Source: an uncultured bacterium (lineage in GTDB: Bacteria > Patescibacteriota > Minisyncoccia > Phycocordibacterales > UBA2100). From it: a stretch of 64,000 bases of DNA. Location: assembly GCA_903824595.1 (NCBI GenBank), contig CAIJXH010000007.1:5184-69183 (forward strand), given 5' to 3'. Under the pieces are notes generated by a model. It was not told the origin of the DNA. It did not search any database and saw only the letters and a program-made list of their open reading frames with translations. The first letter of the stretch is position 1; each line of letters opens with the position of its first letter. Shown piece by piece: positions 8,133 through 46,321 of this stretch. The position numbers and the translations under genes are program-made.

Positions 8133-8142
8133 CGCACCATAT

Positions 8143-12184: not shown

Positions 12185-12275
12185 GTTCGATTCCCCGTAG
12201 GGACCCGACAACGCCTAAAAGCCCGACACAATGTGTCGGGCTCCAAGGCGTTGTGACCCTACGGGGAATCGAACC
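12185..12275. repeat. Long inverted repeat: the tRNA-Glu 3' end and an inverted partial copy, flanking a perfect 9 bp-stem hairpin (12221-12241)
   Basis: GTTCGATTCCCCGTAGGG occurs on the + strand at 12185-12202 and as its reverse complement inside tRNA-Glu at 12258-12275. The arms extend to about 30 bp (…GACAACGCC / GGCGTTGTG…) around GCCCGACACAATGTGTCGGGC. Confidence 0.65.
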
Positions 12276-12325
12276 CCGATTTAAGCCTTGAGAAGGCTCC
12301 GTCCTAACCGTTAGACGATAGGGCC
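12254..12325 (-). tRNA. tRNA-Glu (anticodon CTC)
   Basis: The reverse complement gives GGCCCTA...TAGGGTC acceptor, anticodon stem GAGCC/GGCTT with loop TTCTCAA, T-arm GGGGTTCGATTCCCC, discriminator A. Confidence 0.8.
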
Positions 12326-12778: not shown

Positions 12779-14308
12779 CTATAATTCGAACTGGTTCATT
12801 GATGTGTCGCTAGATAATGCATTCTTGAGTCTCTTTTCTGGTATTCTTGACATAAGTGCGAAAAAGGCACCAACGAGCATTACGCAAGAGGCGAGCATGA
12901 AGATCGTGTGGTATGCGGTAATCTGGGCCTTGAGTTCGATAAGCGCGATGAATTGTTGGGTGGCGTTTTGTGTATGTGTGTATAGTTCGCTGTTGTTTAC
13001 TATGGATAATACGTTGGATTCTGTGGTGTTTTTGAGTACGGTGCCAAAAATTGCTATACCGAATGCTCCCGCGATGTTGCGTACGAGCGCCAAGACTGAA
13101 GACGCTACGCCCATCTCGCTTTCTGGGACGAGTGAGGCGATCGCGTTCGTGCGTTGTGCCATGCCGAAACCAAGTCCAAACGACATGATAAAAAGCGGGA
13201 TCATAAGATCGAGAATGCTTGAGCGTACGTCGAGCCACGTGAAGAGCGACATGCCTATCGCGGCAACAATCGTCGAGAAAGCAATCACGTATTGTGTTTC
13301 CACTTTGCCGGTGAGCGCTCCGCCAATTGGTGAAGAAAGCATAAAGCCTGCTGCCATGGGAATGAAGATGAGTCCTGATTGCGTCGCACTGTAGCCAAGA
13401 AAGGTTTGTGCAAAAATAGGCAGGAGAAAAACACTTCCCATCATCCCCATGAATACAATAAAGTTATTCCCCAGTGTGTTGACGAATGGTCCGTGTGTAA
13501 AAAATTTGAGATCAATGATCGGCTCGGGGTGATGTTTCTCGATGCGATAGAACACATAACCAAAACCAAAAATACCGAGATAGCACAATGCGCTCTCGTA
13601 CGAAATCCAACCCCATTCTGTTCCTTTGTCGAGTACCAATACGAGCGATGAGAGTGCGATACCAAGCATGCTCGCACCCCACCAATCGAAGGCATGGGAA
13701 CTTCGTTCGACTTTCGATTCTGGAATGTAGGCGAGCGCCATGAGAAGTCCGATGATGCCGACGGGAAGGTTGACGAGGAATACTGATCTCCAGCCAAATG
13801 TATCGATCAAAGGACCTCCTATCAAAGGACCAAGAACTGCCGAAGCGGCAAAGGCGGATGACCATATTCCAAGTGCTTGCGCGCGCTCTTTGCCCTCGGA
13901 AAATGTGAATGCGATGATCGCCATTGCGGTGGGATAATCGGCAGAACTCGCAATTGCTTGAATGACACGAAATACAATCATGCTTCCAAGATTCCACGCA
14001 AACCCTGCCAAGACAGATCCGAAAATGAAGAGTCCAAACCCTGCAATATAGACGCGCTTTCTGCCTGTTGTGTCGCCAAGCTTTCCCCAGATAGGGACGA
14101 AGACAGCATTTGCGAGAATGTAGGCTGTCGCAATCCATCCAGCGGCGCTTACGGTGATCGAAAAGTCCTCAATGATTTTCGGCAGTGCAAGATTGACGAT
14201 CGTTTGATCGAGACGACCGAGAAACGTTCCGACGATGACGGTAATAAGAATGAGCCAGCGCGAGCTGTCTTTGGGTGCAAGCGAAGCCCCTACTGTTTGA
14301 ATACCCAT
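12779..14308 (-). CDS. MFS transporter, DHA2 (EmrB/QacA) family, 14 TMS
   Basis: N-terminal LALPKIIEDF...GRLGD-like motifs (GKLGDTTGRKR), 509 aa, 14 hydrophobic segments. It is the last gene of the MarR-HlyD-HlyD-MFS operon. The track ORF 12753..13394(+) overlapping it and tRNA-Arg is spurious. Confidence 0.85.
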   Translation of the reverse strand: MGIQTVGASLAPKDSSRWLILITVIVGTFLGRLDQTIVNLALPKIIEDFSITVSAAGWIATAYILANAVFVPIWGKLGDTTGRKRVYIAGFGLFIFGSVLAGFAWNLGSMIVFRVIQAIASSADYPTAMAIIAFTFSEGKERAQALGIWSSAFAASAVLGPLIGGPLIDTFGWRSVFLVNLPVGIIGLLMALAYIPESKVERSSHAFDWWGASMLGIALSSLVLVLDKGTEWGWISYESALCYLGIFGFGYVFYRIEKHHPEPIIDLKFFTHGPFVNTLGNNFIVFMGMMGSVFLLPIFAQTFLGYSATQSGLIFIPMAAGFMLSSPIGGALTGKVETQYVIAFSTIVAAIGMSLFTWLDVRSSILDLMIPLFIMSFGLGFGMAQRTNAIASLVPESEMGVASSVLALVRNIAGAFGIAIFGTVLKNTTESNVLSIVNNSELYTHTQNATQQFIALIELKAQITAYHTIFMLASCVMLVGAFFALMSRIPEKRLKNALSSDTSMNQFEL

Positions 14309-21468: not shown

Positions 21469-22791
21469 TCAAAAGAATGGTATTGAGATATTGAAAAATT
21501 GGGTGAGAAGTATGATGTTGAGGCACAATACCAATACCGCTCCTGCTGATGCGAAAATTTTGGTCAAGCGTCCGTTTGCGAATGTTCCCATAATATCGTG
21601 ACGCGACGTGAGCATGATGAGTGCTATCACGGGAACTGGGAGCGTGAGACTGAGGACTACCTGACTCAATACGAGTGCATGAGTCGCTTCTACCCCCAGT
21701 AATACAACGACGAACGACGGCATCATGGTTATCAATCGTCGTAACCATAGCGGAATCGATATCGTGGTGAAATCTTGCATGATGGTTTGTCCTGCCATAG
21801 TGCCAACCACGGAGCTTGAAATACCTGAAGCAAGGAGTGAAAGGAGAAACACTCCTGCGGCGGTAATACCCATGAGTGGTGTGAGTGTAAGGTAGGCGGT
21901 TTGAATGCTCGCTGCTTGAGAGTGACCTGTTGCATAGAATACAGAACTTGCCATCGCAACCATTGCCATGTTGACTATTCCAGCTGCTCCAAGTGCGGCG
22001 AGAACTTCCCAATTGGAATACCACAACACCGTACGACGATCTTCATCGTTGCGTACGCGCATACGATTTTGTGTGAGACTAGAGTGCAGATAAATCGCGT
22101 GAGGCATGACGGTCGCCCCCACGATACCTACGGCGAGTGTAAGTGCGTCGGCGTTTGAGATGTGTGGTACCACTGAATGATACGCAAAATCTATTATATT
22201 GGGACGTGTAATGAGAAATTCGACGAGGTAGCTCAAACTTATGAGAGATACAAATGCACCGATGACGATTTCCATCGGTCGAAATCCATAATTTTGCAGG
22301 AGCAATATGCCATACGTTACAAAACCGACAACAACGAGACTCGCGAGTATAGGCAATCCAAAAAGAATACTCAAACCGATTGCTCCACCCAAAAATTCTG
22401 CCAAATCGGTTGCCATGGCCGACACCTCGCTCGTAGCCCACATGCAATACACCACGGGAGCAGGGAAGTGTTCGCGCGAAAGTGACGCGAGACTCTTTCC
22501 CGTGATGATGCCTAATTTTGCTGAAAGCGATTGGAAGAGCATTGCGATACAATTGGAAACGACGACGACCCACAAAAGCTCATAGCCGAACTGCGCTCCT
22601 GCTTGAATGTTTGTAGCAAAATTACCGGGATCCATGTAGGCGATTGAAGCGATGATCGCGGGACCAAGAAATGGAAGGAGGCGTTTGATCCCGGAAGATT
22701 CTCCAGAAAGCGCTCGTTCTCCTGCCGATATGGTCCTATTCGACCATTCGGAGACATGTAGCAATTCACTAATCATATGAGATAGTGTCAA
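21469..22791 (-). CDS. mntH: Nramp-family divalent metal (Mn2+/Fe2+) transporter
   Basis: LGPAIIASIAYMDPGNFATNIQAGAQFGYELLWVVV, which contains the Nramp DPGN motif; about 11 TM helices; 440 aa. Confidence 0.9.
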   Translation of the reverse strand: MTLSHMISELLHVSEWSNRTISAGERALSGESSGIKRLLPFLGPAIIASIAYMDPGNFATNIQAGAQFGYELLWVVVVSNCIAMLFQSLSAKLGIITGKSLASLSREHFPAPVVYCMWATSEVSAMATDLAEFLGGAIGLSILFGLPILASLVVVGFVTYGILLLQNYGFRPMEIVIGAFVSLISLSYLVEFLITRPNIIDFAYHSVVPHISNADALTLAVGIVGATVMPHAIYLHSSLTQNRMRVRNDEDRRTVLWYSNWEVLAALGAAGIVNMAMVAMASSVFYATGHSQAASIQTAYLTLTPLMGITAAGVFLLSLLASGISSSVVGTMAGQTIMQDFTTISIPLWLRRLITMMPSFVVVLLGVEATHALVLSQVVLSLTLPVPVIALIMLTSRHDIMGTFANGRLTKIFASAGAVLVLCLNIILLTQFFNISIPFF

Positions 22792-22936: not shown

Positions 22937-23008
22937 TCCGGGGTAACTCAATGGTAGAGTGGCTCCCTGTTAAGGAGTAAGTTGTGGGTTCGAGTCCCAC
23001 CCCCGGAG
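22937..23008 (+). tRNA. tRNA-Asn (anticodon GTT)
   Basis: Acceptor TCCGGGG/CCCCGGA, anticodon stem GCTCC/GGAGT with loop CTGTTAA, T-arm GTGGGTTCGAGTCCCAC, discriminator G. Confidence 0.85.
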
Positions 23009-24566
23009 CCGAAGGTCGGATAATATACCACCCTGAAAAAACCCATTGTTTTGGGCTTTTTCAGTTTTTGGTGTTTTGTAGAAGGCTTCCTCTGCTTGCA
23101 AAAGTTCTGCAAACAAGGGGGAGGGAACGGAGGTTACTATAACCCCATCGGCAACCTCGAAGTGTTCCCAGAAAAACGCAAGGTATTGCCGCTTGAGATC
23201 AAATGATGCTTTCGTGTATGCGTGATAGATGTCGCGTGCCAGCAGCAGTACCTCCTGCGCGACATCTACATTCATGTCTCGCTGATCTTCCAGTCCAAGT
23301 AGGTCGTCGTCAATGTCTGTCATTTGAGTCGTGATCTCTTTTCGTATTCGAGTGAAATCTGCGTCTTGAATGACACCATCGAAGAGTTTATCCTCTGCGG
23401 TCTTTCGTTTGCCTTCAAGGGCGGTTCTCTTGTTCACGAGTGCTTGTCGCCGACCATCGTACCTCTTCCGCCTATCAAGAAAGATGTGTTTCGTCTTGTT
23501 TATGACGATATTGATGAACTCGTCCGAGAATTGCAGGTCTTTGAACTTTTCGGCAATCTTGCTTTCAAGATCGACTTGCTCGCAATACCGCCCGCACCCC
23601 ATCCTGTTGGAGCAATGGTAGTAAGCGATACCTTTTCTAATGCCACTCTGCGACATAGCGTTTTCCATGATTGGCACAGCGCACGAAACCAGAGAGGAGC
23701 CATTTATGCTTTCGCCTGCGGCACGCCTTGTGATTGTTGTGTTCAAGTATCGTCTGTACCTGATTGAATGTCGCCTCGTCGATGAGCGGCTCATGCTTGC
23801 CGTTCTTGTTGTGTACCTTTCCCCACTTCACTTCACCGAGGTAGATGCGATTACGCAACAAATCATAGATGCGGCTCGGTGATAAGGGGTTCCCTTTGTG
23901 GCTTCGCAGTCCGCGACGACTCATCGCGTCGGCAAGGTCGTATACGCTGTATACACCAGTTGCATAGAGACGGAAGAGTTCGGTAATGAGTGGAGCGGCT
24001 ATCGGGTCTGGGACGATTATCTTGCGCCCAACACGACTCACGTTTGGGTCAGGATTATCGGTGTTGACATATCCTGCGGGAGGAATGGTGGGGAAGTAGC
24101 CCGCCTCGGTTTTTGCGTAGAGTGTACTTTTCACCTTGTCCGATATTTGGTCGCGGTAATACTGATTGATGTTCGCGTGCATTCGATCCGACATTTTTGA
24201 GTGAGCATTGTTTTCGGGGCTTGCCTGTTGAATGTAGATGAGTCGGATGTCGTTTTCGAAGATAAGATCCATGAATTCGATATGCGCTCGTTCGTTGCGA
24301 AACATACGATCCGACGCAAGGGTAATAACTGCCTCGATTTTCTTTGTTGTGATGAGGTTTCTGATGTGATTCAGCCCAGGTCGTTCGGCTTTATGACCGC
24401 TAATGCCGCCATCATCGAGAATCTCTAGCAGATCGTACCCGTCGCGCTCTGCACGTTCACGACAGAGCTTTTCCTGTACCTCCAAGGATAGTCCATCATC
24501 TTTTTGATCTTTTGAACTTACCCTTACGTAACCGACTGCCAATGGTTTTTCTTTTTTATGATTCAT
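22970..24566 (-). pseudogene. Large serine recombinase, split by a frameshift into two overlapping ORFs (23637..24566 N-terminal part; 22970..23794 C-terminal part)
   Basis: The N-terminal ORF carries the resolvase catalytic domain (AVGYVRVSSKDQ...) and the recombinase domain, ending ...GFVRCANHGKRYVAEWH. The second frame continues with the zinc-ribbon part (YYHCSNRMGCGRYCEQVDLESKI) and a coiled coil; together about 535 aa. The last ~12 codons run through the tRNA-Asn gene. Confidence 0.7.
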
Positions 24567-24653
24567 AGTGCGTATAATAAGTACTAATGTTTAGAAGTAA
24601 TGTGTACGCGAGTGTGGATACATGAGTTGTCTGAATCATCCACACTCAATCCG

Positions 24654-25664
24654 CTACTCATCGGAGGAAACACTAGATGGGTTTTCGTCCGATCCGACAG
24701 TTATCGAGTAATGTGCTTTGTTGTGTTTACTGGTTGTCCGTGCCAAACGCCCCTCGTCCACAAGTTGTGTGAGAGCCGAAGTGAGCACTGATCGGCTGAA
24801 GGCTTTTTCCACCGATTCGTCAATCTCTGTCAGGGAGAGTTCTGTAGCGTCTGTTTTTGCGAATGCTCCCATCACAGCGTTTTTTGCTTCATCCCGCTTC
24901 TCTCTTTGTTTGTCATATTCACCGATATATTCAAGACACACAGTGCCTAATGCAGTGTCCGCCATCACCTTTGCGGCAAACTCATCTTGCACGGGTGCCT
25001 GTCGAAGTTTATGTTGAGCAAATATGACGACACGCTCTTTCTTCTGGTACGAGAGCGCTATGTGGGAATCCACTGCCGCGAAGATGTCGGATGAGCCACG
25101 CAAGCTATTCGGCGACGTTGCACCCTGAAACAATTCTTTGCGATGATGGTGAGTACATATTACGCTCACGCCCTTGGCAGTGATTCTTTTCAGGTTGCCG
25201 AACACTACAGCAATCTGTCTCGAGTCGTTTTCATCTCCTTTGTGGAATCGAATAAGCGAATCTAAAACAATGAGTCCAATGCTCTCCTGTTCAACGTATC
25301 TAAGGAGTGCTGCGACATGCTCCTCCTTGTCTAACTGGAAGCCCTCGTCAAAGTTGAACCACACAAATGCATCCATCGATGCGCCAAGTGATATGAGTCG
25401 CTCTTTGATGTGCTTCGCATGGTTTTCTTTGTCGAGAATGAGTACATTGCGTTGGTGGGGGATTGTGAATTGTCCGAGGAATGGTTTGCGTCCAGCCACG
25501 CACAACGCGAGATGCAAGCACGCCCACGTCTTGTAACTTGCAGGCATTCCCGAGATGACCGTGATGGTCTGTGTCGGGATCAGTCTCTCGACGAGCCAAT
25601 TATCGGTGCCATATTCTGTACCGAGAATGTCGCGTACTGTCGTCGCTTCGAATTTCTTTTCCAT
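24654..25664 (-). CDS. RecA-like P-loop ATPase (AAA_25 / RepA-like helicase-loader family), typical of plasmid and integrative-element replication modules
   Basis: A Walker A-like ISGMPASYKTW, a Walker B LIVLDSLIRFH, and a C-terminal acidic tail. Confidence 0.65.
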   Translation of the reverse strand: MEKKFEATTVRDILGTEYGTDNWLVERLIPTQTITVISGMPASYKTWACLHLALCVAGRKPFLGQFTIPHQRNVLILDKENHAKHIKERLISLGASMDAFVWFNFDEGFQLDKEEHVAALLRYVEQESIGLIVLDSLIRFHKGDENDSRQIAVVFGNLKRITAKGVSVICTHHHRKELFQGATSPNSLRGSSDIFAAVDSHIALSYQKKERVVIFAQHKLRQAPVQDEFAAKVMADTALGTVCLEYIGEYDKQREKRDEAKNAVMGAFAKTDATELSLTEIDESVEKAFSRSVLTSALTQLVDEGRLARTTSKHNKAHYSITVGSDENPSSVSSDE

Positions 25665-25684
25665 ATCAGTGAATATGTTACTTG

Positions 25685-25912
25685 CTAATGGTTTCTAGGA
25701 GATTGCTCCTCCTCCAATCTTTCCTGTGCTTTTCGCTCGGCACCCTGTTCAAGGATTTGCGCCGCCAGAAGCTCGGCAAAAAGCAGTGCTGCCTGTGTTA
25801 TCCGCTCATGGTTCTTGTATGCGTTATTGTTGATAATGTCTCCCATGCGCGGGTAGTTTCCCAAAAGAAAACTGCCCAAACTATTGGGCAAGATAGAGCG
25901 ACGATAGGGCAT
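25685..25912 (-). CDS. Hypothetical small protein (75 aa)
   Basis: An ORF in the intergenic space of the element's minus-strand operon; no recognisable motif. Confidence 0.3.
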   Translation of the reverse strand: MPYRRSILPNSLGSFLLGNYPRMGDIINNNAYKNHERITQAALLFAELLAAQILEQGAERKAQERLEEEQSPRNH

Positions 25913-25923
25913 CAGATTTTGCC

Positions 25924-26778
25924 CTATTCAGGGTACTCAACGATCATTAGATATTTACCTGCGCCCCTATCAGGATTCAGAACATCCACATGAATATCTT
26001 GTGATGACGCCTTTCTCAACTTACTTCGGATACGCCTCACATCATCGCGGAATTGATCTTTTTTGCGATTTGCAATTTTCAGCATTGCTTGGACGGAGGT
26101 AAGTGTTCCATCTCTGATCGACACATTACCGCGCTTCTCCATGCGATTCTCGAACAAGATCTCCACAATTTTGCCCTGAGAACGATAGAAAGGGACTTTG
26201 AATTTTCCATAGTCCAAATACCCATTCGCAAACTTCAAATGACATGCCTCGCGATTTCGGACGGATTTTTTCAAGTCATGTTCTATTTTTTTCAGCTTCT
26301 GTGGCAAGGTAGCTCCATCGAAAGAGAAATTGGCAACAATTGCGTCGATGGTGAACGGACCATCCACGTCGGGAACCTCAACGACTTGTGATTTGAGATT
26401 CTTGATGACATCCATTTTCTCAAGTTCAATCAGGAATCTCTCTTTGATCATCGAAACCACTCGCATCGTTGGATTTACGGCAACTGCTGAAAACAGTCCG
26501 ACAACGAGTGTGTAATCATTCGGTGCGGGTTTTTTGGCACGAACAATGGACAGAAGTTTTTCAACCATCTCGAGTTGGTACTCACTCTGACGAGAATATA
26601 TGCCGCGTAAAAATTCCTCATCCATCCTATCCGTGATCAAACGGACTGGTGTCTTGGAAATGCGTCGCGCTGTCTCTAAATGCTGAATCTCGTGAATGAT
26701 CTCTGGCGCAAGATTATCAAATGGCGGATGATTCATAGTCATCAGTAGTTTCCAGTTTTTATGCCCTATATAGTACAT
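25924..26778 (-). CDS. Hypothetical protein (possible replication/initiator protein of the element)
   Basis: 284 aa, basic C-terminus; first gene of the minus-strand operon, beside a divergent intergenic region that holds hairpins. The start may be the internal Met at 26742. Confidence 0.45.
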   Translation of the reverse strand: MYYIGHKNWKLLMTMNHPPFDNLAPEIIHEIQHLETARRISKTPVRLITDRMDEEFLRGIYSRQSEYQLEMVEKLLSIVRAKKPAPNDYTLVVGLFSAVAVNPTMRVVSMIKERFLIELEKMDVIKNLKSQVVEVPDVDGPFTIDAIVANFSFDGATLPQKLKKIEHDLKKSVRNREACHLKFANGYLDYGKFKVPFYRSQGKIVEILFENRMEKRGNVSIRDGTLTSVQAMLKIANRKKDQFRDDVRRIRSKLRKASSQDIHVDVLNPDRGAGKYLMIVEYPE

Positions 26779-27022
26779 AAAAAACTAAAAACTACGAAAA
26801 GAATAGCGATAATGTCGCAATCGCTCTGCATCGGACAAAGACAGCCGCGCATAAACACGAGACGATAATCGAACCATTTGAACACTTTGATCATCCGCTT
26901 TTCGCAAGGGTGTGCGAACAGTGGTATAGTGGCGGGGTACGTTTCGGCGTACTCACACAACCAATATCGAGCCGCAAGGCTAGTGCCTAAACCATCGAGT
27001 CATCGGTGGCATGGTGCGAAAA

Positions 27023-27063
27023 CGTAAGTCACAGAAAACCCGTCATTCAGGGCGTGACTTACG
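27023..27063. promoter_or_regulatory. Perfect 10 bp inverted repeat (CGTAAGTCAC...GTGACTTACG) with a 21 nt spacer in the divergent intergenic region of the element
   Basis: It lies between divergently transcribed genes 25924..26778(-) and 27103..27720(+); a candidate operator or origin. Confidence 0.3.
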
Positions 27064-27102
27064 TTATAGGGGGAAACTCCTATATGACCGCAAGGTCTCC
27101 TG

Positions 27103-27720
27103 GTGGCGGGCTTTATGTTGGAACAAAAAACACAATTTATTCAGAATGAAGTACTTGGCTTGGTTATTCGAGGTGCATTTCCGCCGTACACTAAAATCTA
27201 TGCCAAGATTGCCACGGAAAAAAACAGGGCACGAATGCGACACATAATCCGTGAGAAGATTGTTGAAATGGCGGAATTGTATCGGCAAAAGCATGTTTCT
27301 CCCGAGGCACATGTTGATAACATCGAGACATTGCAAAAATATATCAATACGCAATGTTGTAATTTTTTGACGAAAGAAATCTCTTTCGGTATCGCTCAAA
27401 AACTATTGAATCTCTATCTAAAATATGAATGGTGCCTGAATAGATTCAATCACGATGTACATCCGCCACATTGTCCTGTGGACTCCATTGTAATCAAGCA
27501 AGCGAACAAGGAGGGTGCGAAAATACCACCAAAGCCGCCATGGTCTCAAATGGCAGCGAATGATTACCTGTACGCGATAGAAGAAATTGGCAGGGTGGCT
27601 AGTAAGTGCCAAAAGAATATGCCCGCATGGGAATTGGATATCTTCAATGCGAATAATCCTGCCTACGGATTTGATGTCAGTGTGGATAAATCGGTTGGAT
27701 TTTTATCGGATGGAAACTAA
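27103..27720 (+). CDS. Hypothetical protein
   Basis: 205 aa, several Cys (CCNF, HCPVD); no recognisable domain. The start could be the Met at 27115. Confidence 0.45.
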   Translation: MAGFMLEQKTQFIQNEVLGLVIRGAFPPYTKIYAKIATEKNRARMRHIIREKIVEMAELYRQKHVSPEAHVDNIETLQKYINTQCCNFLTKEISFGIAQKLLNLYLKYEWCLNRFNHDVHPPHCPVDSIVIKQANKEGAKIPPKPPWSQMAANDYLYAIEEIGRVASKCQKNMPAWELDIFNANNPAYGFDVSVDKSVGFLSDGN

Positions 27721-27742
27721 TATCGTATCGTACTAAAAAATC

Positions 27743-28837
27743 ATGAGAAACACATCATTCAAAATCTTTTTCGCGCTCGGCTTGTTTATTCTCATGCTTC
27801 CGCAATTTTCGTTTGCCGAGTTCACTTCAGATTTGCATTACGGTTCCACTGGTGCCGATGTTTCCGCGCTTCAAGAATTTCTTACCCAACAGAAAGTGTA
27901 TTCCGGTCCGACAAGTGGCAGTTTCTATTCACTCACCCTAGCGGGTGTAAAAAAGTTCCAATCTGCTGAAGGAATAACACCGGTGAGCGGCTATGTCGGA
28001 CGCGTAACGCGAGGAGTAATAAATCAAATTCTTGCAGGACAGGTTTCAACATCGGAAGAAAATGCCACTACGACGCGACCACCTGTGGATTTATCGCAAC
28101 AAAAAGATCAATCCTCCTCTATATCAAGTGTCTCACCAACTATTACACTTCCCAATGGTGCAATAGTGCGACTGAATACGGACGGTGCTGTTACTTCATA
28201 CACACCACCAACAACTCTTCGATCGTCAGTGGCAGAGCAAAATCAGAAATCTTCACGAGACATCACAACTCAAACACCGACACTGACCCCTCTTCCAACA
28301 CCATCAATAGCCATACCCACATCTTCGCCCATAATAGATTCATCTACCACATCGACTGTTGCTGTTGCGCGCGCTCTTACCATAGCAAATAGTCCGCACA
28401 CTGTTTCGAAAACGGTCGTTGTTGGTAGCCAAAGAGTATCCTTCGCGACAATCCAACTTGTTGCATCCGACTCGCCTTACGATATTTATGTAGGTGCACT
28501 GCCACTTATTCTCAATGTAGGAAATTCCGCAAAAGCAACTGACATTAGTGATTGTATGATATGGCTTAGTGGTAACCTGATCAATGCTGGCGCTAATATC
28601 GTGAGTTTTCCGAAGGTTGGCACAAAGACAATTTTTAGTTTTGACCCAACTGTAATGGTGCCAAAATACGGCGCACTCTCACTCCCTCTCACCTGCAATA
28701 TCGCAACCTCTTCTACACCTGGCGGAACATATTCATGGTCTGTCGACACGAATACAACAGACTATATTGGTCTTTCTTCCGCAACCATAATCAACGTAGC
28801 AGATGGTCCATCGCCAACAATTACTATCTCAAACTGA
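27743..28837 (+). CDS. Secreted protein with an N-terminal peptidoglycan-binding domain, a Ser/Thr/Pro linker and a C-terminal beta-rich domain
   Basis: A signal peptide (MRNTSFKIFFALGLFILMLPQFSFA), a PG_binding_1-like block (GSTGADVSALQEFLTQQKVYSGPTSGSFYSLTLAGVKKFQSAEGI), and a T/S/P-rich linker. Confidence 0.6.
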   Translation: MRNTSFKIFFALGLFILMLPQFSFAEFTSDLHYGSTGADVSALQEFLTQQKVYSGPTSGSFYSLTLAGVKKFQSAEGITPVSGYVGRVTRGVINQILAGQVSTSEENATTTRPPVDLSQQKDQSSSISSVSPTITLPNGAIVRLNTDGAVTSYTPPTTLRSSVAEQNQKSSRDITTQTPTLTPLPTPSIAIPTSSPIIDSSTTSTVAVARALTIANSPHTVSKTVVVGSQRVSFATIQLVASDSPYDIYVGALPLILNVGNSAKATDISDCMIWLSGNLINAGANIVSFPKVGTKTIFSFDPTVMVPKYGALSLPLTCNIATSSTPGGTYSWSVDTNTTDYIGLSSATIINVADGPSPTITISN

Positions 28838-28854
28838 GAGACATCCTTCAAACC

Positions 28855-29691
28855 ATGCAGGACTTGCTGTCATTTATAGTGAGACGTTTGGGTTGGAGGG
28901 CGTTGCATCTGATACTACCATTGAGCATCATTGCTCTCTCGGTGGCGGGCTGTGTGGCGATTGTGTACTACACGAGTAGACCTGCCGACAGTCTCTTGTG
29001 TCCAAGCGCATACACCACCACCGAAGAGGCGACGGCATCCTTCCAAGCATTCACGAATAACTTTTACGACGCACATCCAGATGCCTCACTGAGTGATCTT
29101 GCTGCCGCACGCCACGACTTCTATGTATCGCATCACTGCACGCAAGAACTTGCGGCATACCAACAAGCAGTAGATGGTAACGCTGATCCTGCGACAATGA
29201 AGATGATAGACCAAGCGATTGGAAAGGTTTTGACAGCAATAAAGGACGCCGAATCAAAACGCCCGCCCGGCATTGGAGCGTCACCCAGCGAAAAAGAAAT
29301 CTACGAAAATCCCTATATCAAGCACATCCGTACAGCCTTACACGGGTACTTGGACGGGACGAATGATGGGGTTGAAGTGGATAGTCTTGCTCTCGGCACA
29401 CAGAATGAGCGTTGCGGTCTTGAACACTTTGACAAATCGTATTACAGGAGCAAATTTGTCATTTACAGTGCCGAAAACAATGAGTACGGAGGAGTCGAAG
29501 CCAACATAATTTTTATTGATAAGCCCAACGCTGTATTCTGGGCTTGGGTCTATCAATATGGTGGTGATGAGAATGGCGATAAGAAATATGCCTTGAGAGG
29601 CTTTTGCGAGCAGAAATTACCTGCGGAACATAAAGCCGAATTGCTCAAGACAATGTCGGAGTTTGCACACGAATCCAAATACTCCATTTGA
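28855..29691 (+). CDS. Hypothetical membrane-anchored protein
   Basis: An N-terminal TM (LHLILPLSIIALSVAGCVAIVYY) followed by a soluble domain. Start at the ATG at 28855; the track ORF starts upstream inside the previous gene. Confidence 0.5.
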   Translation: MQDLLSFIVRRLGWRALHLILPLSIIALSVAGCVAIVYYTSRPADSLLCPSAYTTTEEATASFQAFTNNFYDAHPDASLSDLAAARHDFYVSHHCTQELAAYQQAVDGNADPATMKMIDQAIGKVLTAIKDAESKRPPGIGASPSEKEIYENPYIKHIRTALHGYLDGTNDGVEVDSLALGTQNERCGLEHFDKSYYRSKFVIYSAENNEYGGVEANIIFIDKPNAVFWAWVYQYGGDENGDKKYALRGFCEQKLPAEHKAELLKTMSEFAHESKYSI

Positions 29692-29912
29692 TCGGTGTTG
29701 AAGACGATGCTTCAAAGTGCGCACATCAGTCTAATGTTGGAACCTGCCACAAACAATATACGGTTCCACCTTTTCTTTTTGCTGCGAAGCGTTTAGGTGG
29801 GAATGATAAGGTGAGAGCGGGCGGAGTCATGTTATGTGAATCCGTGCGCAATCAAATACAACTGTGCGGGCGGCTCGCATTCTGTCTCCACACATGCCAT
29901 AATTTCAACGGC

Positions 29913-30067
29913 AAGAACATTGCTTCAATCCCTGCACTACCGCTGGCTATTTATATGTCCGTAAGCCACGCGGGTTGGTACTTGAAAAGTGCCTTCATCG
30001 TCCTCAGATCTACGTAGAGCGGAGAATCGATACAGTAATGCAGGGATTGAAAGAATGTCGTTGCTTG
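29913..30067. repeat. Imperfect ~30 bp inverted repeats (29913-29940 and 30035-30067) separated by ~95 bp in a non-coding stretch
   Basis: CAAGAACATTGCTTCAATCCCTGCACTAC pairs with GTAATGCAGGGATTGAAAGAATGTCGTTGCTTG; the arms are about 85% complementary. Confidence 0.4.
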
Positions 30068-30225
30068 TCGCCAACCCTATGACAGAGTATCACAAAAACG
30101 AACAATGGGAAGTAAAATGCATACAAACAAGAGAACATAGCATGTATTTACAGAGATTTTTATGACATTTAGAGATACTGGTAAGGGTTGTTGACAGGAT
30201 AAATGGGAGGAGTAAAATCAGCTGT

Positions 30226-30600
30226 ATGGAAGAATATAACTTTGATGAGTTCAATTCGGTTGGGACAAGATTCAATCCAACAATTAGTCTTGGCGATTCG
30301 GAAAGGTTTTATTTGGGCGGTTCCTTCTGTAGGAAATACAACATATCCGATATGGTTGGGGTAAAACTTATGTACGATAAAGCAAAAAATGCTGTGGGTT
30401 TTAGGTTCTTGAAGCAGAAAGAAGACGGTATGATTGGCCTAAAGAGACTTGGTAAAGATTCCGCGTACATCAATGCAAAAGCATTTCTTGGCATGTATGA
30501 TATAGAGTATAAGAAGTTCTCGAATCGTTACTTACCAAAAGAGGTCAATAGTGGAGATAAGAAGATTCTGGTCATTGAACTCAAAGAGACAATGAAGTAG
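30226..30600 (+). CDS. Hypothetical protein (124 aa)
   Basis: A complete ORF preceded by a GGGAGGAG RBS-like purine run; no recognisable domain. Confidence 0.45.
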   Translation: MEEYNFDEFNSVGTRFNPTISLGDSERFYLGGSFCRKYNISDMVGVKLMYDKAKNAVGFRFLKQKEDGMIGLKRLGKDSAYINAKAFLGMYDIEYKKFSNRYLPKEVNSGDKKILVIELKETMK

Positions 30601-30855
30601 ATTCGCTAAAGTTGTCGAAAATATCGTTTCGTAAAACGGACTACTATCAATGTTGATCAACAGATGTTTCCATTCGTTGCATCAATCTGATCATTATCAG
30701 CCGATGTTCCATCTGCAACATGAATTCTCTGTTGAAAAATAGGGGTATATTTATGTCATGTTCCGGGAGCCGCTGACATACATCGCCTACAGGGCGATTC
30801 TGTCATATGCGGCTCCGAGGGAGACAAGCGCCTGGACGCTTGTCGAGTGGGACGA

Positions 30856-30925
30856 GAACAGCGGAGCGATGTCGAGCAAGCTTGCGAGACCGCGAGCTGG
30901 TGCCTAACCCGAGCCGAGTGTCGAT
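30856..30925. repeat. GC-rich module; copy B, closely related to 4838-4905
   Basis: GAACAGCGGAGCGATGTCGAGCAAGCTTGCGAGACCGCGAGCTGGTG lies in a 450 bp non-coding stretch, about 20 nt before the imperfect tRNA-Asn 3' end copy. Confidence 0.5.
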
Positions 30926-31052
30926 GAGGTGAGAGGTGAAGGAGAGTCTACCCCGGAGCAAAGAAGTTTTAGTTCCCTTTTCAATTTTTCAACCCCGATT
31001 TTTCTTTTTAGGCAGGGGCGGCGCAGAAATGCCAAAATACGGAGAGTGAATC

Positions 31053-32554: not shown

Positions 32555-33490
32555 ATGACATACATGGCACACATATCAAAACTACGGAGACGTGGCGTAT
32601 TCATGACCCTCTTGTTATGTGTGCTTTGTGTCGTGTCATTCGGGATATTCTATTTCAAGAACGCGGCGTCCATTGTACATATCGCGAAGGTTATGGGCAT
32701 CACATCAATTTTAGAAATTGCGTCAAATGGGAGTACAACATTGATTGCGGGTATACAGCCAGGTGGAGGCAAAACCACTACAACCACATCCATGTTTGGT
32801 GTCGTACAACCGCCGCTTTCTGAATATATGGAGGTTATGGATGGATGTGGTCCATACTACGATACGGGGACATGCGTAAATATGCGTTCTGGTCCGGGTA
32901 TCACGTACTCCGTGGTTGCGCGTTTGCGCACTGGCGTAGTTTTGCGAGTAAAAAAAGAGGTCACAATTGATGGTGTGATATGGGATAACATCGGATTTGA
33001 TAATGAGGTGCGCTACAAAGATCGTCTTCCAGAAGATCTATATGTTGCGGCTGCGTTTGTTCGAAATTTCTATCATGACGGAAACTATGTGTGGATGAAA
33101 AGTGCCGCGACCACTACAAAGCGAATCGTGGTTGATGTATCGGAACAAATGTTATACGCCTATGATGGTGCCACTCTTTTTATGAAAGAGCCTGTGTCAA
33201 CAGGTCTTGAGCTAACTCCAACCGCACGTGGTACTTTTACCGTATTCAAAATGACACCAGCCCGATACATGCAAGGACCATTGCCCGGAGTGAGTGAGCA
33301 AATATATGACTTGCCGGGAGTTCCGTGGAATCTGTATTTTACAGAAGGAGGTGCCGTCATTCACGGTGCGTATTGGCACGATCATTTTGGTGAACCGTGG
33401 TCTCATGGGTGTGTGAATTTGCCACCCCAGAAGGCAAAGCAACTCTACGAGTGGGCGGTCATTGGCACAAAAGTAACCATTCAGAATTGA
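32555..33490 (+). CDS. L,D-transpeptidase (YkuD domain) with an N-terminal TM anchor
   Basis: C-terminal catalytic block ...IHGAYWHDHFGEPWSHGCVNLPPQKAKQLYEW (the His...SHGC motif). Confidence 0.8.
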   Translation: MTYMAHISKLRRRGVFMTLLLCVLCVVSFGIFYFKNAASIVHIAKVMGITSILEIASNGSTTLIAGIQPGGGKTTTTTSMFGVVQPPLSEYMEVMDGCGPYYDTGTCVNMRSGPGITYSVVARLRTGVVLRVKKEVTIDGVIWDNIGFDNEVRYKDRLPEDLYVAAAFVRNFYHDGNYVWMKSAATTTKRIVVDVSEQMLYAYDGATLFMKEPVSTGLELTPTARGTFTVFKMTPARYMQGPLPGVSEQIYDLPGVPWNLYFTEGGAVIHGAYWHDHFGEPWSHGCVNLPPQKAKQLYEWAVIGTKVTIQN

Positions 33491-33538
33491 TACGTGGTGT
33501 TTCCTTGTGTATCCGTGCAATCTATGTAGTATGGCGTA

Positions 33539-34174
33539 ATGATATTTCCATTCATCGTTATCAACACGCAATCATCCGTATTCACAACCACGCCTCACTC
33601 TCAACAAATTATTCTCGCGTCATCACGCACGCAAAGCGTAGAAGCTGCTCACACGGCTTCCGATGTCCCGTTTTATTCTCAATTTGTCGACATATCGGCA
33701 CCTGCGTGGAAGAAAGTCGGATGCGGGATTGCGAGTCTTGCCATGATTATCGATTTTTATAAACCTGCCGTACCAGTAAACACATTGTTGACGCGGGGCA
33801 TTGCGGCTGGCGCATACACACAAAATGCAGGCTGGTCGTACAAAGGACTCATTGCGCTCGCCCAAAAATATGGACTCGAAGGAGCTAGTTATGATCTCTC
33901 GAAACTCGGTACGAATGTCGCTCTCAAAAAATTCAAAACCCTACTCAATGATGGTCCTGTTATAGCATCGGTGCACTACAAATTTGACCCGCACAGTTCA
34001 ATACCGCATCTTGTGGTAATAAACAGAATAGAGGACGACACCCTGTATTACAACGATCCCGCTGCAAAGAGCGGAGACAAGCAAATCTCTGTCACTGATT
34101 TTGAAAGAGGGTGGAAAATGAGATTCATCGTTTTTAGGCCTGTTGTTGAAAAAGAAAGTGGCGCATCTGTCTGA
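33539..34174 (+). CDS. C39-like papain-fold peptidase domain protein (Peptidase_C39_2 / YvpB-like)
   Basis: PFYSQF...WKKVGCGIASLAMIIDFY (a catalytic Cys context), with His/Asp later (HLVVINRIEDD). Confidence 0.6.
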   Translation: MIFPFIVINTQSSVFTTTPHSQQIILASSRTQSVEAAHTASDVPFYSQFVDISAPAWKKVGCGIASLAMIIDFYKPAVPVNTLLTRGIAAGAYTQNAGWSYKGLIALAQKYGLEGASYDLSKLGTNVALKKFKTLLNDGPVIASVHYKFDPHSSIPHLVVINRIEDDTLYYNDPAAKSGDKQISVTDFERGWKMRFIVFRPVVEKESGASV

Positions 34175-40936: not shown

Positions 40937-41869
40937 ATGGAGCACTTTGGTATGCATGTAGTACGACGAGACGACCCGCGCTACATGGAAGCAGTGGTCA
41001 AAAAGAAGTCACAAGAAGATCCGCGAGAGATTGTGATCCGCGAAAAAACTGCCGCGCAGATGCTCAAGGAGGAGTGGGCGCGCGATGCGTTTGCGAGAAT
41101 TAGAGACATTCAGATCGAGTACCTAAAAGACGCCGTGGCACACGCGGATGACCAGGAACACGTGCACGCGCGCACACAAAACACGGTTCGTGAATTGTCG
41201 TCATTGCTACGCTCGAGTATCGTGAGCGGTTCTGAATTTCTCAAAGAAATACCGCGAGGCTCTCCTGTTCTTGTTGCCACCAATCATCTCGGCGCATACA
41301 AGCTCGTCGGAATAAAACCAAAAGAAGACATTGGTGTCGATATTCCCGGCTATGACGCCATGTACCCGTATCTCATGTATTTTTCGGCACTCGCACCTGT
41401 GGCTGATGCGCTTGGCGATACGATATACTACGTATCTGAAGATTTTCCCGGTGTATTCGGTGATGTTCACTCGGCGGCAGGTTTTGTACATGTTCCGCCT
41501 GCGTCTATTCCCATCGAAGGCGGTCGTACGGCGGTGCTCACTGAACAAACAAGAGCGACCATAATCAGGCACAAAAATGCCGCGATTGTGAATTTTCCAG
41601 AAGGTGGTACGAGTGGAAAATATACCGATCTTGATATTTATGATCTCGATCCATTCAAAACGGGCGGCTATGTAGTTGCTTCCGAACTCGGTATTCGTAT
41701 TGTACCTGTCGCGCAATACTTCGACAAAGATAAAGGAATGCAATTGTGTGTGTTCGATCCGGTTGTCCCTCCACAAGGAGCTTCAAAAGACGTGTACGAG
41801 CATCTTGCAAAAAACGATCAGGAGAAAATGCAGGCGTGGCTCGATGTGTGTCGCAATCGGATGAAATAA
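40937..41869 (+). CDS. Lysophospholipid acyltransferase (PlsC-like) superfamily protein with a degenerate HX4D motif
   Basis: Block I LVATNHLGAYK (His present, Asp replaced) and block III FPEGGTSGK. Confidence 0.5.
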   Translation: MEHFGMHVVRRDDPRYMEAVVKKKSQEDPREIVIREKTAAQMLKEEWARDAFARIRDIQIEYLKDAVAHADDQEHVHARTQNTVRELSSLLRSSIVSGSEFLKEIPRGSPVLVATNHLGAYKLVGIKPKEDIGVDIPGYDAMYPYLMYFSALAPVADALGDTIYYVSEDFPGVFGDVHSAAGFVHVPPASIPIEGGRTAVLTEQTRATIIRHKNAAIVNFPEGGTSGKYTDLDIYDLDPFKTGGYVVASELGIRIVPVAQYFDKDKGMQLCVFDPVVPPQGASKDVYEHLAKNDQEKMQAWLDVCRNRMK

Positions 41870-41905
41870 AATCAATCATGCCTGTTCCTGTGGTCAAGGC
41901 GACGT

Positions 41906-44900
41906 GTGTCTGGTACTATTTTTACATATCATAATCCTCTAATCTTACCTATGCCCACGCCCCCACGCACTTTTCCAGTAACACAAACATACACCACCTC
42001 AACATGCGCGCTTGTAGCACTTTCCGTACTTTTTGGTGCATGGTATGCACACGCAGATACGATATCAGTGAATACCGACGACCGTGTTGCCACATCATCT
42101 GTACCAGCACTCGTGTCAGATGCAACCTCCACACCCGACACGGTCGCCACGTCCACCGATCCATCATCCGACGACGCGAGCACTACCGACGACGTATCTT
42201 CCGATGAAGAAGATGTAGCACTCGACCTCGGCGACGATCATACCGAGCTCGATGCCGCCAAAGACATGACCGGCGTCGTGCGCCAGAGCAAGCCATACAC
42301 CTGCGGACCAGCCTCGCTTGCCACCTTGCGCACACAAATGGGAGAGACCACGAGCGAGGAAGACGTGTTGCGCTACTTCACGGGCGACAACCTCACCGAA
42401 GACCGCGGCACCAACCTCCTTGCGCTCAAAAACGCCGCGCAGGAGCTCGGCAGCACCGTCTACCTCAAGAAACTCTCCGCCGAGCAGGTGCTCACGTACA
42501 TCCAAGACACCGGTGATCCCGTGCTCATTCACGACGAAAAGCCGGGAGTCGGCGGACACTTTTCCGTCATACGCTCATACGATGCCGACAGCGCGATGGT
42601 GGAACTTTCCGACACGGAAGCGGGCAACATCAAGTACTCGGTGGAGAGTTTCAAACACATCTACACAGGCGACACGCTCATCATTTCCGACGACACGAGC
42701 AACGATCTCCTCAACGCCACCTCCACCGATCTTTCCAACGACTATGCTGCGGAGGTGTGGGGCAAGTATGTGCCGGTGGCTGTGGCTGCCAACGGAAAGA
42801 GCGCGGCTGCCACGGCGGCGGTTACCGCATTCAACATCTGCATCACCAACGCGATGAAGACCGTCAACTACACCCAGCGCAACAATGCTCGTGCCGTCTG
42901 CTATACCACGCTCGGTACCGACCTGAAAGGCACGTCGTCCACCGATCCGCTCTCCAATTTCCAGGAGCTCCAGGTCGCCGCAACCGTCGAGGGGACGATG
43001 CTTCTCGGCAACCTCGACAAAACCAATGAAACCGCCATCGGCACGTCCGACCTTCTCGCCGCACTCCGCTCCGTCCTCGCCGCCCAACAGACATACATCT
43101 CCGTATTCCCCACACTCACCAGCTACCTCTCGCAAGCCAGTGCAACACTCGCCACGCTTGCAAGCACGATCACGACACTCCAAAACCAAATCACTCCGCT
43201 TCAGTCCAAGCTCTCACAAGCACAGACCGACAAGGGAATACTCGATATCGCTATCACACAAAAACAATCCGCCATCACTCCGCTGCAGAACGAAGTCAAC
43301 GGCGGTACCTTCGTCCAAAACGGCACCACCTTCTCGCTCGGCGCAGTCGGCAGTCAGCTCTCCGCACAGTCCACAACCCTGAAAACACTCTCGGCAAATC
43401 TCGCCAGCAAACTCTCTTCGCTCGACGGTCAAATAGCCAACAAGCGAAGCTCGATCAATTCATACACCAGTAGCCGTACCTATTGGCAAAATCAAATCAA
43501 CATATACCAATCCGATGTAAACAACTGGCAATCTCAATACAACAACGCCGTCGCCTCCGTGAGCTACTTCTGGAATCAGTACCAGGCAGACATCAGAGCG
43601 CGCCGCAGTACCTCATACGACTACACCAACTACGCCGCATGGCTCACCAAGCAAAACACCTACTCCTCCTACCTCAACACCGCCCGCTCCAACCTCTCCT
43701 CGGCACAAAACAATTACAGCTACTACAATTCTCAAATCAACCAGCTCACGAGCGACATCGCTTCGCTCCAGGCACAGAAAGATTCTGCCAATAGCGCCGT
43801 CTCCGCCGCTTCCGCCGAAGCCGCTCGCCTCCAACGACTCAAGGACTTTGGCGATCAGGAAATGAATCGCAAGAAAGGTCTGCTCGCAACACTCCAGAGC
43901 GAGCTCGCCAATCTCCAAAATCAGCTTTCTGCCAAAGTCGCTTCCATCACCAGCTACACCGCCCAGCTCACGCCACTCAAAGCAAAGCTCGCCACACTCC
44001 AATCCGCCCAATCCCTCGCCACCCAGATCACCGCGCAGACACAGATCATTGATGGTGTGAAGGCGAAGTATGGCTTCACAACATTGACGTACACAAATCA
44101 AGACGAAACAAATCGTCTCATCACCGAGGAGCTGACGAATGAGAAGGGGTGGGATCGTTCAGTGGAAGTCGGCGCTACCGCCAGTATCCAACAAGCAGCG
44201 GTGACCACTGCTCCAACAGGCGTGTGGCTCGTGGGTGCGATATCGGGCGTCGTGCAAGGATTGTATTCTGTCGCCGAAGGATTCGAGACACTCGTATTCT
44301 CTCCACTCACTACTGCTCAAAACATCGGAAGTGCCGTATCTAACTACGACAAAACCGCAACTGCCATCTACGATGGTCTCAAAGGTCGCGCCGTTGCCAT
44401 TGTATATGTCGACAACACCAACTTCTTCAGTATCTACAATGCGGGCGTAGCTGTTGGATCGACTGCGTTTGATGTATGTACGGTCGCTTGTACACTCGGT
44501 GGAGGCATTGCGGTCAAGGGTGTACAAGTATCGAAAACCGCGATAAATGTCTCCGGCACAGCTGATCGTACGGCGGAGATCACCAAAGTCGCGCAAACAC
44601 TCCGCGCCACACTGGCAGCAAAGATCACTACCATGGTTGCTGATCTGAAATCAGCATCGTCAATTTCCGCTCTGCTCACCAAGGTAGACGCTTACAATAT
44701 CCCCAATGTCGGCGTGGGCTCAACGAAAGTACTTCTCGGGAGTGCGAGTGATGCGAGGGTGGTGTTTGATGCAATGACGAAAGGGTGGAAAATTGAGAAA
44801 GATGTGGTCGCATCGGATGGATCTGCTATTTATGTGCGAACATCCACAGACGGCAAATACTCCCTTGATTACCGAACGAAGTCCACATCTTCAATCTCAG

Positions 44901-45001: not shown

Positions 45002-45008
45002 ATTAAGT

Positions 45009-45461
45009 ATGAAACCATCGTATTCCATTGAAAATGAAGTGCTTGAGGAGGTACTCACATACATTAAGAATAATCCGGACCACTCCTCGTTGGCGTATGT
45101 CATTGGCATTCTTGGCTATACTTCTGAACAAAAAAAGAAATACGGACTGCGGGAATATCCGCAGCCAGAATACACAACCACAGAATTAGAAGAGATTAGA
45201 AGCTTGGCATCAGTCGAGGTTAAAGAGCGGACTCTCTCCTACCTCAAAAAGCTTTTGAAGGATGGGCAGATAAAAGTAAGACTGATACATATTGACACAA
45301 AAGAAATGACTGACTTCAATACGTCCGATGATGCGGAAAGAATGGTCGGGACGCTTCGCAAGATGTGGAGTGAATGCCCACAGGAAGATCTCACAAGTTT
45401 TGAACTATCTCAATACATCACGCTCTTCGGAAACCCATGGCCCATTTATAAAAACCATTAA
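45009..45461 (+). CDS. Hypothetical protein (150 aa)
   Basis: A complete ORF with its ATG 8 nt after the giant gene's stop; no recognisable domain. Confidence 0.45.
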   Translation: MKPSYSIENEVLEEVLTYIKNNPDHSSLAYVIGILGYTSEQKKKYGLREYPQPEYTTTELEEIRSLASVEVKERTLSYLKKLLKDGQIKVRLIHIDTKEMTDFNTSDDAERMVGTLRKMWSECPQEDLTSFELSQYITLFGNPWPIYKNH

Positions 45462-45475
45462 GATAAATAAAAACT

Positions 45476-46213: not shown

Positions 46214-46321
46214 GGTATCCGAGACAGCTGTCCACGCAGTCTCCTTACGTTCCTGTTTCCTCATGCACACTTTTCGACAGAGTGATATTCACAGGCTCCG
46301 TCGAGGTGGTAGAATTTCAGC

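Follow-up and report, generated by a model that had tools for sequence, protein, structure and literature searches.

Does the tRNA-Asn(GTT) gene of this uncultured member of the Patescibacteriota carry an integrated element at its 3' end and, if so, where does the element end and which enzyme inserted it? The gene lies at positions 22937-23010 on the forward strand of the window, by which we mean the whole 64,000-nucleotide (nt) stretch of contig CAIJXH010000007.1 analysed here, and its 3' end is met by a serine recombinase gene on the reverse strand. To our knowledge, tRNA genes have almost exclusively been seen as targets of tyrosine integrases. A first-pass annotation had proposed a 7.97 kb island here, delimited on the right by a copy of the tRNA end at 30944-30959. 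The island is genuine, but this delimitation is wrong. In our reading, to which we give a probability of about 0.8, positions 23012-30772 are an integrative element of 7,761 bp that sits at the extreme 3' end of the tRNA gene and owes its insertion to a large serine recombinase (LSR) that it encodes itself. Comparison with related elements supports the core of the earlier proposal, an integrated element of ~8 kb at tRNA-Asn whose mobility depends on a serine and not a tyrosine recombinase; some of its details do not hold.

The length of the element follows from a 7-bp core, GGAGCCG, common to both junctions. Comparison of the junctions shows that its left copy (23005-23011) comprises the last 6 nt of the tRNA gene and the next base, and that the other copy is at 30766-30772. 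Together with the element-side P arm, the left copy forms attL (23005-23033). The P arm terminates in ATAATATACC (23020-23029), which mirrors GGTATATTTAT at the opposite end, and its motif beside the tRNA, G[GT]TATATTA[AT], is conserved in an alignment of nine related loci. The distal site was sought with the mirror image of this motif preceded by the terminal tRNA bases, and the best match in the window was 30744-30771. We read it as attR (30744-30772), the right end of the element, which consists of the P' arm GGTATATTTATGTCATGTTCCG and the core.

DNA of 13 distinct related elements was available from one metagenome scan and exact look-ups, and homologues of the distal site occur in seven related elements from other metagenomes. 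It matches L094 and L113 (blastn, E = 4.6e-5), and the distal sites of four elements align across ~75 nt with 38 invariant columns, despite unrelated neighbouring cargo. In L114, the equivalent mirror-image search retrieved a perfect 11-nt inverted copy beside a 9-nt copy of the tRNA-Gln end. The tRNA 3' fragment displaced to the right end in the window is only 6-7 nt long (GGAGCC[G]), and what validates it is the conserved arm and tail adjoining it rather than its own length.

The 47-bp attP rebuilt from the two ends reads, on the recombinase-sense strand, GGTATATTAT-CCGACCTT-CGGCTCC-CGGAACATGAC-ATAAATATACC. With terminal inverted repeats of 10/11 nt and the core in the centre, it has the size and symmetry expected of an LSR site, and the att sites of L113, L114, and L094 follow the same design. 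The predicted junction of the circle (attP) is GGTATATTATCCGACCTTCGGCTCCCGGAACATGACATAAATATACC. To the right of 30772 the sequence begins GCTGACATACATCG, so that the predicted empty site would read ...GGAGCCGCTGACATAC, and the predicted attB contains GGTTCGAGTCCCACCCCCGGAGCCGCTGACATACATCGCC. With the crossover located in its final bases, the tRNA gene stays intact and no long direct repeat arises. The tRNA-Asn gene, the only one of its kind found by ARAGORN in the window, is recognised as intact by both ARAGORN and Rfam (tRNA, 70.4 bits), and a repeat search found no direct repeats flanking the element. A search for terminal tRNA k-mers as att sites in the relatives yielded nothing convincing.

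The right end could instead lie at 30944-30959, with the tRNA end as a direct repeat, or 30773-30959 could be the stump of an older element in the same tRNA gene, that is, a tandem site. The final 9 nt of the tRNA gene, CCCCGGAGC, do have an exact same-strand copy at 30951-30959, immediately preceded by GAGTC, and 30759-30960 folds unusually well (−90.4 kcal/mol, z = −4.1) and has a G+C content above its surroundings. However, the sequence at 30944-30959 (GAGTCTACCCCGGAGC, followed to the right of 30959 by AAAGAAGTTTTAG) shares with the tRNA end only this 9-mer and the 5-mer, with an indel between them, and the supposed 16-bp match does not exceed chance level, the outcome that the first-pass annotation itself had named as counting against the repeat. 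Per window, 0.24 copies of the 9-mer are expected, and an 18-mer of the tRNA end has no second match at three or fewer mismatches. When the tRNA 3' region was aligned with 23.2-40 kb by the Smith-Waterman algorithm, the best score was 22 versus a shuffle mean of 21.4 ± 2.1, and 30944-30959 was outside the top five. Moreover, its left flank carries neither the P'-arm motif nor any tail-coding homology, whereas 30744-30772 has both, and also homologues elsewhere. We know of no LSR that generates long direct repeats. Both variants therefore seem to us very improbable; the mapped right end lies ~180-190 bp to the left of the claimed repeat, which falls outside the element.

The ~190 nt just outside the mapped end (30773-30960) are G+C-rich and start with a long hairpin, of which the displaced tRNA end is part; Rfam gave no match for 30759-30960. 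This region is presumably the original trailer of tRNA-Asn, or conceivably the stump of an older insertion.

Further evidence for the mapped ends comes from the recombinase gene. A conserved stretch inside the distal end first resembled a mini-ORF (open reading frame) of 20-24 codons. When the 3' end of the recombinase gene is joined to the distal site at the core, the reading frame runs on into this stretch in the window element, L113, L114, and L094, and also in three elements with intact recombinases (L097, L100, and L102). The junction is thus in frame in 7/7 cases, for which the chance is ~(1/3)^7. The restored tail is 30-43 amino acids (aa) long and conserved, with the consensus PE[HQ]..I.I....[RK][ES][YF]M..L...L..I[KR].[LM], and tblastn of tail against tail gives E = 1e-7 to 1e-12. 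In the window, the detached tail of 39 codons and a stop (PEHDINIPLFFNREFMLQMEHRLIMIRLMQRMETSVDQH) is encoded at 30647-30766 on the reverse strand, and it is in frame with the recombinase only in the circular element. The in-frame junctions and the conservation of the tail together show that the recombinase gene spans attP and that integration swaps the C-terminus of the protein. The integrated form in the window ends ...DLRLRGWDSNPQLTP, where the last 14 residues (from the second R) are encoded by the antisense strand of the tRNA gene, and the circular form would end ...DLRLPEHDINIPLFFNREFMLQMEHRLIMIRLMQRMETSVDQH. We infer that such a swap could control the direction of recombination.

The presence of a serine recombinase gene at the 3' end of tRNA-Asn is confirmed: its stop codon at 22970 sits 41 nt inside the tRNA gene, and its last 14 codons are antisense to it. 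The gene had been annotated as a single ORF, however, and it is not one; rather than the one polypeptide of an LSR, the region encodes two overlapping ORFs in different frames, both on the reverse strand. The N-half (23637-24566; 309 aa, ending ...RYVAEWH-stop) carries the Pfam domains Resolvase (PF00239, E = 1.3e-24, residues 10-156) and Recombinase (PF07508, E = 1.5e-15, residues 189-276), as well as the first zinc ligands, C297 and H300. The C-half (22970-23656, within a raw ORF at 22970-23794; 228 aa from a conserved ATG) contains the rest of the zinc ribbon (YYHC..C..C), followed by the coiled-coil region and a C-terminus. The two halves match the phrog_95 integrase in order, at its positions 83-387 and 395-558, respectively; the catalytic domain matches the TP901-1 integrase (3bvp), and CcrB and XisF are partially matched in NCBIfam. 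A match to Zn_ribbon_recom (PF13408) appears only after joining the two ORFs; it covers residues 290-331, and hence the junction 309/310, with 25.6 bits versus a cutoff of 25.3. The order of domains is Resolvase, Recombinase, zinc ribbon, and coiled-coil region.

The split is not peculiar to the window. With the frame-repaired recombinase as query, two kinds of homologue were retrieved: many intact proteins of 515-560 aa from genomes of the candidate phyla radiation (CPR), and a set of ~305-aa proteins that cover the N-half only. In the alignment, all 19 N-half homologues, with 58-71% identity, end ...RYV[AG]EWH-stop. The junction DNA of six elements reads CGN TAT GTC GNN GAR TGG CAT TAR, with the TAT, GTC, and CAT codons invariant, and an invariant ATG (within TAT GTC), 17 nt before the N-half stop, opens the C-half in the +1 frame. 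The C-half starts M-S-[QV]-[SN]-G-I-..., and gene callers also begin at that ATG. In intact relatives, Thr stands in place of Val, the +1 ATG is absent, and a single frame reads RY-T..EWH-LKKKL-AYYHC. No C-half is interrupted, and the pairwise identity among them is 53-72% versus 54-71% for the N-halves.

These data bear on the possibility that the island is an immobile, decaying remnant, in which the recombinase is a frameshifted pseudogene and the region has become fixed host DNA. The two frames of the recombinase are what a pseudogene might show, only the integrated form is seen in all assemblies carrying these genes, and the tail peptide of the window departs from the family consensus. On the other hand, 19 homologues keep the split at one and the same codon, and the two halves are each intact and conserved to an equal degree, which argues that the gene is not a pseudogene; likewise, the element retains both att arms, the core, and the detached tail ORF in intact form. 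We thus hold decay to be quite unlikely.

How the two ORFs are expressed is a separate matter. Programmed frameshifting (+1 or −2 at UGG CAU UAR) might join them into one full-length LSR. This would be in line with the stop and the change of frame falling at precisely the same codon in every member, a −2 shift would give EWH and AYYHC the 5-residue spacing seen in the intact relatives, and a zinc ribbon shared between two chains would be unusual. At the same time, we see no slippery sequence, as tRNA-His on CAU cannot re-pair on AUU (+1) or GGC (−2), and the sequence after the stop varies (AAA AGG, GCG TAA, ACG CAA, GAA GGG). The +1 ATG is invariant and was created by the clade-specific Thr-to-Val change (TAT GTC), which fits an independent start better. 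Frameshifting is thus unlikely, and the lack of a slippery site together with the invariant ATG favours two polypeptides made by coupled reinitiation over a frameshift fusion. The two halves are probably translated separately, by termination-reinitiation, and may assemble around a shared zinc site.

Several independent assemblies break within the recombinase gene: contigs L005 and L006 begin at 23671 and L007 at 23658, and L002 departs from the window sequence at 23794 and continues with 48 nt of unrelated sequence. The assembly graph was probably tangled by related elements present in the same communities, which would explain these breaks at 23658-23794.

The targeting of tRNA genes by a serine recombinase, suggested by the first-pass annotation for this one locus, extends to the relatives. 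In 10/13 distinct elements, the 3' end of the recombinase gene lies inside or against the 3' end of a convergent tRNA gene. The target is tRNA-Asn in the window, L099, and L116/117; tRNA-His in L096/097; tRNA-Lys in L100, L101, and L105; and tRNA-Gln in L114/115. In L113 (11592-11826) it is a tRNA-Asn gene with a group I intron, identified as Asn by its exon sequence, and in L095 (6301-6584) a group I intron followed by a tRNA 3' end. ARAGORN misses both of these intron-bearing targets. Group I introns in tRNA-Asn genes of Patescibacteria were reported in 2026, in agreement with L113 and L095 (PMC13011429).

The constant adjacency of tRNA and recombinase genes could also mean that the tRNA gene is cargo of the element and that the true insertion site is elsewhere. 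In the reconstruction, however, the crossover falls in the last tRNA bases, which leaves the body of the tRNA outside the element; the tRNA species differs among elements while the recombinase-side arm is conserved; ordinary host genes lie beyond the tRNA, e.g., CTP synthase, FtsEX, and RF-1 in L114; and the window has one tRNA-Asn only. We find this explanation hardly credible, and treat the tRNA gene as the target.

The integrated-form tails of three other elements, L094 (11540-11615), L102 (11553-11644), and L104 (8620-8686), have in common a second conserved peptide, ..V[DE]..RT.I....E[IY]Y[IV]P[DE]L, and also have tRNA-Asn-like antisense sequence. Their target could be the end of another element or a degenerate tRNA fragment.

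The intergenic region between the two divergent gene sets of the element contains a LOOT RNA (RF03000), which had been overlooked. The match is on the forward strand at 26984-27098, with a 3' extension to 27117; it is full-length (model positions 1-121) and scores 74.9 bits versus a gathering threshold of 46.4. A perfect inverted repeat of 10 bp had been noted here; it is present, but its length is 11 bp (27022-27032/27054-27064), and it forms the long stem of the LOOT RNA. LOOT was found in 13/13 related loci whose sequence extends 2.5 kb or more upstream of the recombinase, always on the strand opposite to the recombinase and always heading the cargo side. The genes that follow it are mutually unrelated, and include NOV_C, DUF4365/Mrr-like, and zinc-ribbon proteins as well as unknown ones.

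Past the 121-nt Rfam model, there is an extra helix, in which the apical loop CCCRUCA pairs with a conserved UGRYGGG followed by a U-run. In the window, CCCGUCA (27039-27045) pairs with UGGCGGG (27104-27110), the U-run is at 27111-27114, and the ATG of the first cargo gene follows at 27115; in general, the first cargo start codon lies within a few bases of the U-run. Across 12 sequences, all 84/84 cells of the 7 pairs are paired, and 4/7 pairs show compensatory changes. The covariation is 0.403 versus 0.157 ± 0.033 in shuffled alignments (0/500 reach it), and in slid controls 31-64% of cells pair. Position suggests that LOOT may be a cis-acting leader for the downstream cargo, acting by attenuation or translational control.

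The extra helix competes with the apical CCC/GGG pairing of the Rfam consensus, and 3/12 sequences cannot form the latter. We rejected a role for LOOT as a guide RNA in the choice of target, as its variable hairpins in the alignment are unrelated to the tRNA species targeted. Similarly, apparently conserved start peptides after LOOT (VVGFLF, MWWAF) proved to be an artefact, namely the translated conserved 3' helix and U-run. L102 carries two LOOT RNAs in tandem (8020-8139 and 13812-13928), each with its own serine recombinase, which suggests that elements of the LOOT-associated family pile up at one site.

The remaining genes on the recombinase side form one operon on the reverse strand. The RecA-like ATPase recognised earlier is confirmed at 24654-25664 as a 336-aa AAA_25 protein (RecA-fold, RepA/DnaB-like; PF13481, E = 1e-28). 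It matches the helicase part of PHROG primase/helicase families and, weakly, plasmid AAA ATPases (23-32% identity), and its homologues adjoin the recombinase in L100 and L114/115. It is presumed to be the replication helicase of the excised form. The small ORF described next to it is there as well, encoding 75 aa at 25685-25912; it gives no Pfam, PHROG, NCBIfam, or PADLOC match and is called as a gene in independent assemblies. The first gene of the operon (25924-26778) encodes a protein of 284 (or 272) aa, with only 12 relatives among 1.84 billion representatives; homologues occupy the same position in L088 (43% identity) and L116 (25%). It had been described as a possible initiator, for which we found nothing: none of Pfam, PHROG, NCBIfam, and PADLOC gives a match, and its confident AlphaFold2 (AF2) model (pLDDT 82) has no fold match.

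Four cargo ORFs lie beyond the divergent region, as previously annotated, all on the forward strand. The first (27115-27720, 201 aa) has no Pfam, PHROG, NCBIfam, or PADLOC match, and the gene in this place varies between elements. It is followed by a 364-aa protein (27743-28837) with a PG_binding_1 domain (PF01471, E = 1.4e-8) and a hydrophobic N-terminus, which is probably secreted, and by two ORFs taken from the ORF list, one of up to 318 aa (28735-29691), with no match in the same four databases, and one of 124 aa (30226-30600), called as a gene in independent assemblies. Between the last two is a non-coding stretch of 534 nt (29692-30225) with a 30-nt inverted repeat (29911-29940/30035-30064, 83% complementary); Rfam gave no match in 29650-30260.

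Nothing in this gene set points to a prophage or a satellite with capsid, packaging, lysis, or helper-hijacking genes. In particular, no capsid, packaging, or relaxase genes were recognised among the window proteins in the Pfam and PHROG scans, and the PHROG matches are confined to integrase and primase/helicase-type families and a weak endolysin-like PG-binding domain. Searches of IMG/VR viral contigs for relatives of the ATPase, the recombinase, and the 284-aa protein found none, and GenBank phages gave no DNA match to the element. Nor is the element recognisable as a defence island, as PADLOC found no defence match among the window cargo. Defence-type genes do occur in relatives, namely HEPN_AbiU2, Mrr_cat, KAP_NTPase, and NOV_C. 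In L114 (2474-5680), KAP_NTPase falls within the mapped element, on the cargo side; in L116, HEPN_AbiU2, Mrr_cat, and DUF4238 (2155-4721) are on the cargo side beyond a tRNA-Arg gene (4873-4945), which may mark the end of the element and a second island.

These observations can be combined in one scheme. The LSR inserted the element by a crossover within the final bases of tRNA-Asn, at the core GGAGCCG. In the circular form, the C-terminus of the recombinase is the conserved tail of ~40 aa, and in the integrated form this tail is replaced by the 14 codons from the antisense strand of the tRNA gene; the swap would set the direction of recombination instead of, or besides, a separate directionality factor. 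In the split subclade, the second ORF would reinitiate at its own ATG, and the two halves would meet at the zinc site. The module of the 284-aa protein, the 75-aa protein, and the AAA_25 ATPase would replicate or maintain the excised circle, and the pseudoknot-like 3' helix and U-run of LOOT at the first cargo start codon would regulate the divergent cargo module. That there is a family of CPR mobile elements ("LOOT elements") with a state-sensing integrase tail, a two-chain enzyme in one subclade, and a LOOT cargo switch is a tentative proposal, which we regard as possible rather than probable.

Several points weigh against the picture drawn here. The distal site of the window, taken alone, is only ~1.6 standard deviations above shuffles, its support coming from homology with other elements. 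The lower G+C content of the element (0.455 versus 0.49-0.51 in the flanks) speaks for it, as does the YkuD-C39 pair (32555-34174) to its right, which is a conserved host gene pair, but the atypical composition runs past the mapped end to ~33-34 kb. The tail of the window reads MEHRL versus the consensus MAQRL, and this copy could be less active. L094, L102, and L104 are not adjacent to any tRNA gene. No empty tRNA-Asn site or circular junction was seen among the contigs carrying these genes: every one of them, although they come from several metagenomes, represents one strain and one identical integrated arrangement, and the two-frame recombinase is equally constant across these metagenomes. 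Samples with this strain are ERZ1426604, ERZ27229596, ERZ27313044, ERZ18622979, SRR8496343, ERR4193020, and JGI 3300023311. Synteny with the nearest relatives is lost through both neighbours. On the left, the two Patescibacteria relatives of the Nramp gene do not share it; on the right, relatives of YkuD (75-82% identity) keep the YkuD-C39 pair and not the region upstream, and exact look-ups of the 124-aa and 151-aa proteins returned same-strain contigs only. By its YkuD relatives, the host belongs to the CPR and is of Parcubacteria type (Adlerbacteria-like). Finally, the separate translation of the recombinase halves is read from sequence only, and the roles of the replication module and LOOT from position only.

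Outside the element, the Nramp transporter gene beside the tRNA (21469-22776) encodes a protein 59-64% identical to alphaproteobacterial proteins, and only two Patescibacteria (66-67%) are among its 80 best genome hits. It is a probable horizontal acquisition, probably from Proteobacteria. On the 3' side of tRNA-Glu (12253-12325), contig L006 matches the window to 12253 and continues with 111 nt of unrelated sequence; a second tRNA gene thus marks a junction that varies between strains. Other blocks of atypical composition in the window are 41000-48000 and 57000-62000, with G+C of 0.54-0.58 and GC skew to −0.38 at 42-44 kb, G+C of 0.41-0.43 at 45-48 kb, and 0.55-0.58 at 57-61 kb.

Serine integrases are major tools of genome engineering, and the direction of their reaction is normally set by a separate factor. 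An integrase family that changes its own C-terminus on integration would, if true, represent a new design principle, and so would a natural two-piece version whose split falls within the zinc ribbon. That a whole clade targets the final bases of tRNA-Asn, -His, -Lys, and -Gln genes with serine integrases alters the view that such targets belong to tyrosine integrases, and the predicted attP/attB pairs are ready for testing. In addition, the orphan LOOT RNA gains a genomic context and a testable role, and CPR bacteria, in which such elements are barely catalogued, gain a recognisable class of mobile elements, some with defence genes.

Among known systems, the closest in enzymology are the LSR elements and prophages (phiC31, Bxb1, A118, SPbeta, SCCmec Ccr). 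They have the same order of recombinase domains, and a short att site (~47 bp here) that is an imperfect palindrome with a small identity core and creates no long direct repeats. They differ in that here the targets are tRNA 3' ends, the gene spans attP, the recombinase of one subclade is split in the zinc ribbon, and LOOT is constant. A passage in Mageeney et al. gives tRNA targeting by serine integrases as predicted in 14/297 cases only and says that it needs proof. In overall plan, the elements resemble Islander-type islands, tycheposons, and satellites like the phage-inducible chromosomal islands (PICI): they are small, sit at tRNA 3' ends with the integrase gene proximal to the tRNA, and carry a replication-type ATPase and variable cargo, in relatives with defence-like genes among it. 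Unlike in these tyrosine-integrase islands, however, the recombinase belongs to another family with another chemistry, and the displaced tRNA fragment is 5-9 nt rather than tens of nt long.

For an attP inside the integrase gene, the nearest precedent is myxophage Mx8, which uses a tyrosine integrase and targets a tRNA-Asp gene. As here, attP lies in the 3' end of int, and integration gives the gene a new 3' end and an altered protein (intP/intX). The location of the Mx8 attP inside the integrase coding sequence is described in a review (PMC6070905). Mx8, however, is a 50-kb phage with a tyrosine recombinase, whereas the elements described here are 6-11 kb long, encode a serine recombinase, and swap a conserved tail of 30-43 aa. 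The LOOT motif (RF03000) stems from the Weinberg/Breaker ZWD collection and is listed as a metagenome-derived RNA of unknown function (PMC7779021; PMC7657543). Compared with that listing, it has here a fixed place in a mobile element and an extra covarying helix, although the supplement of the discovery paper may note some of this context. The combination of tRNA targeting by a serine integrase, a gene spanning attP, a conserved split, and LOOT apparently defines a family that has not been described before.

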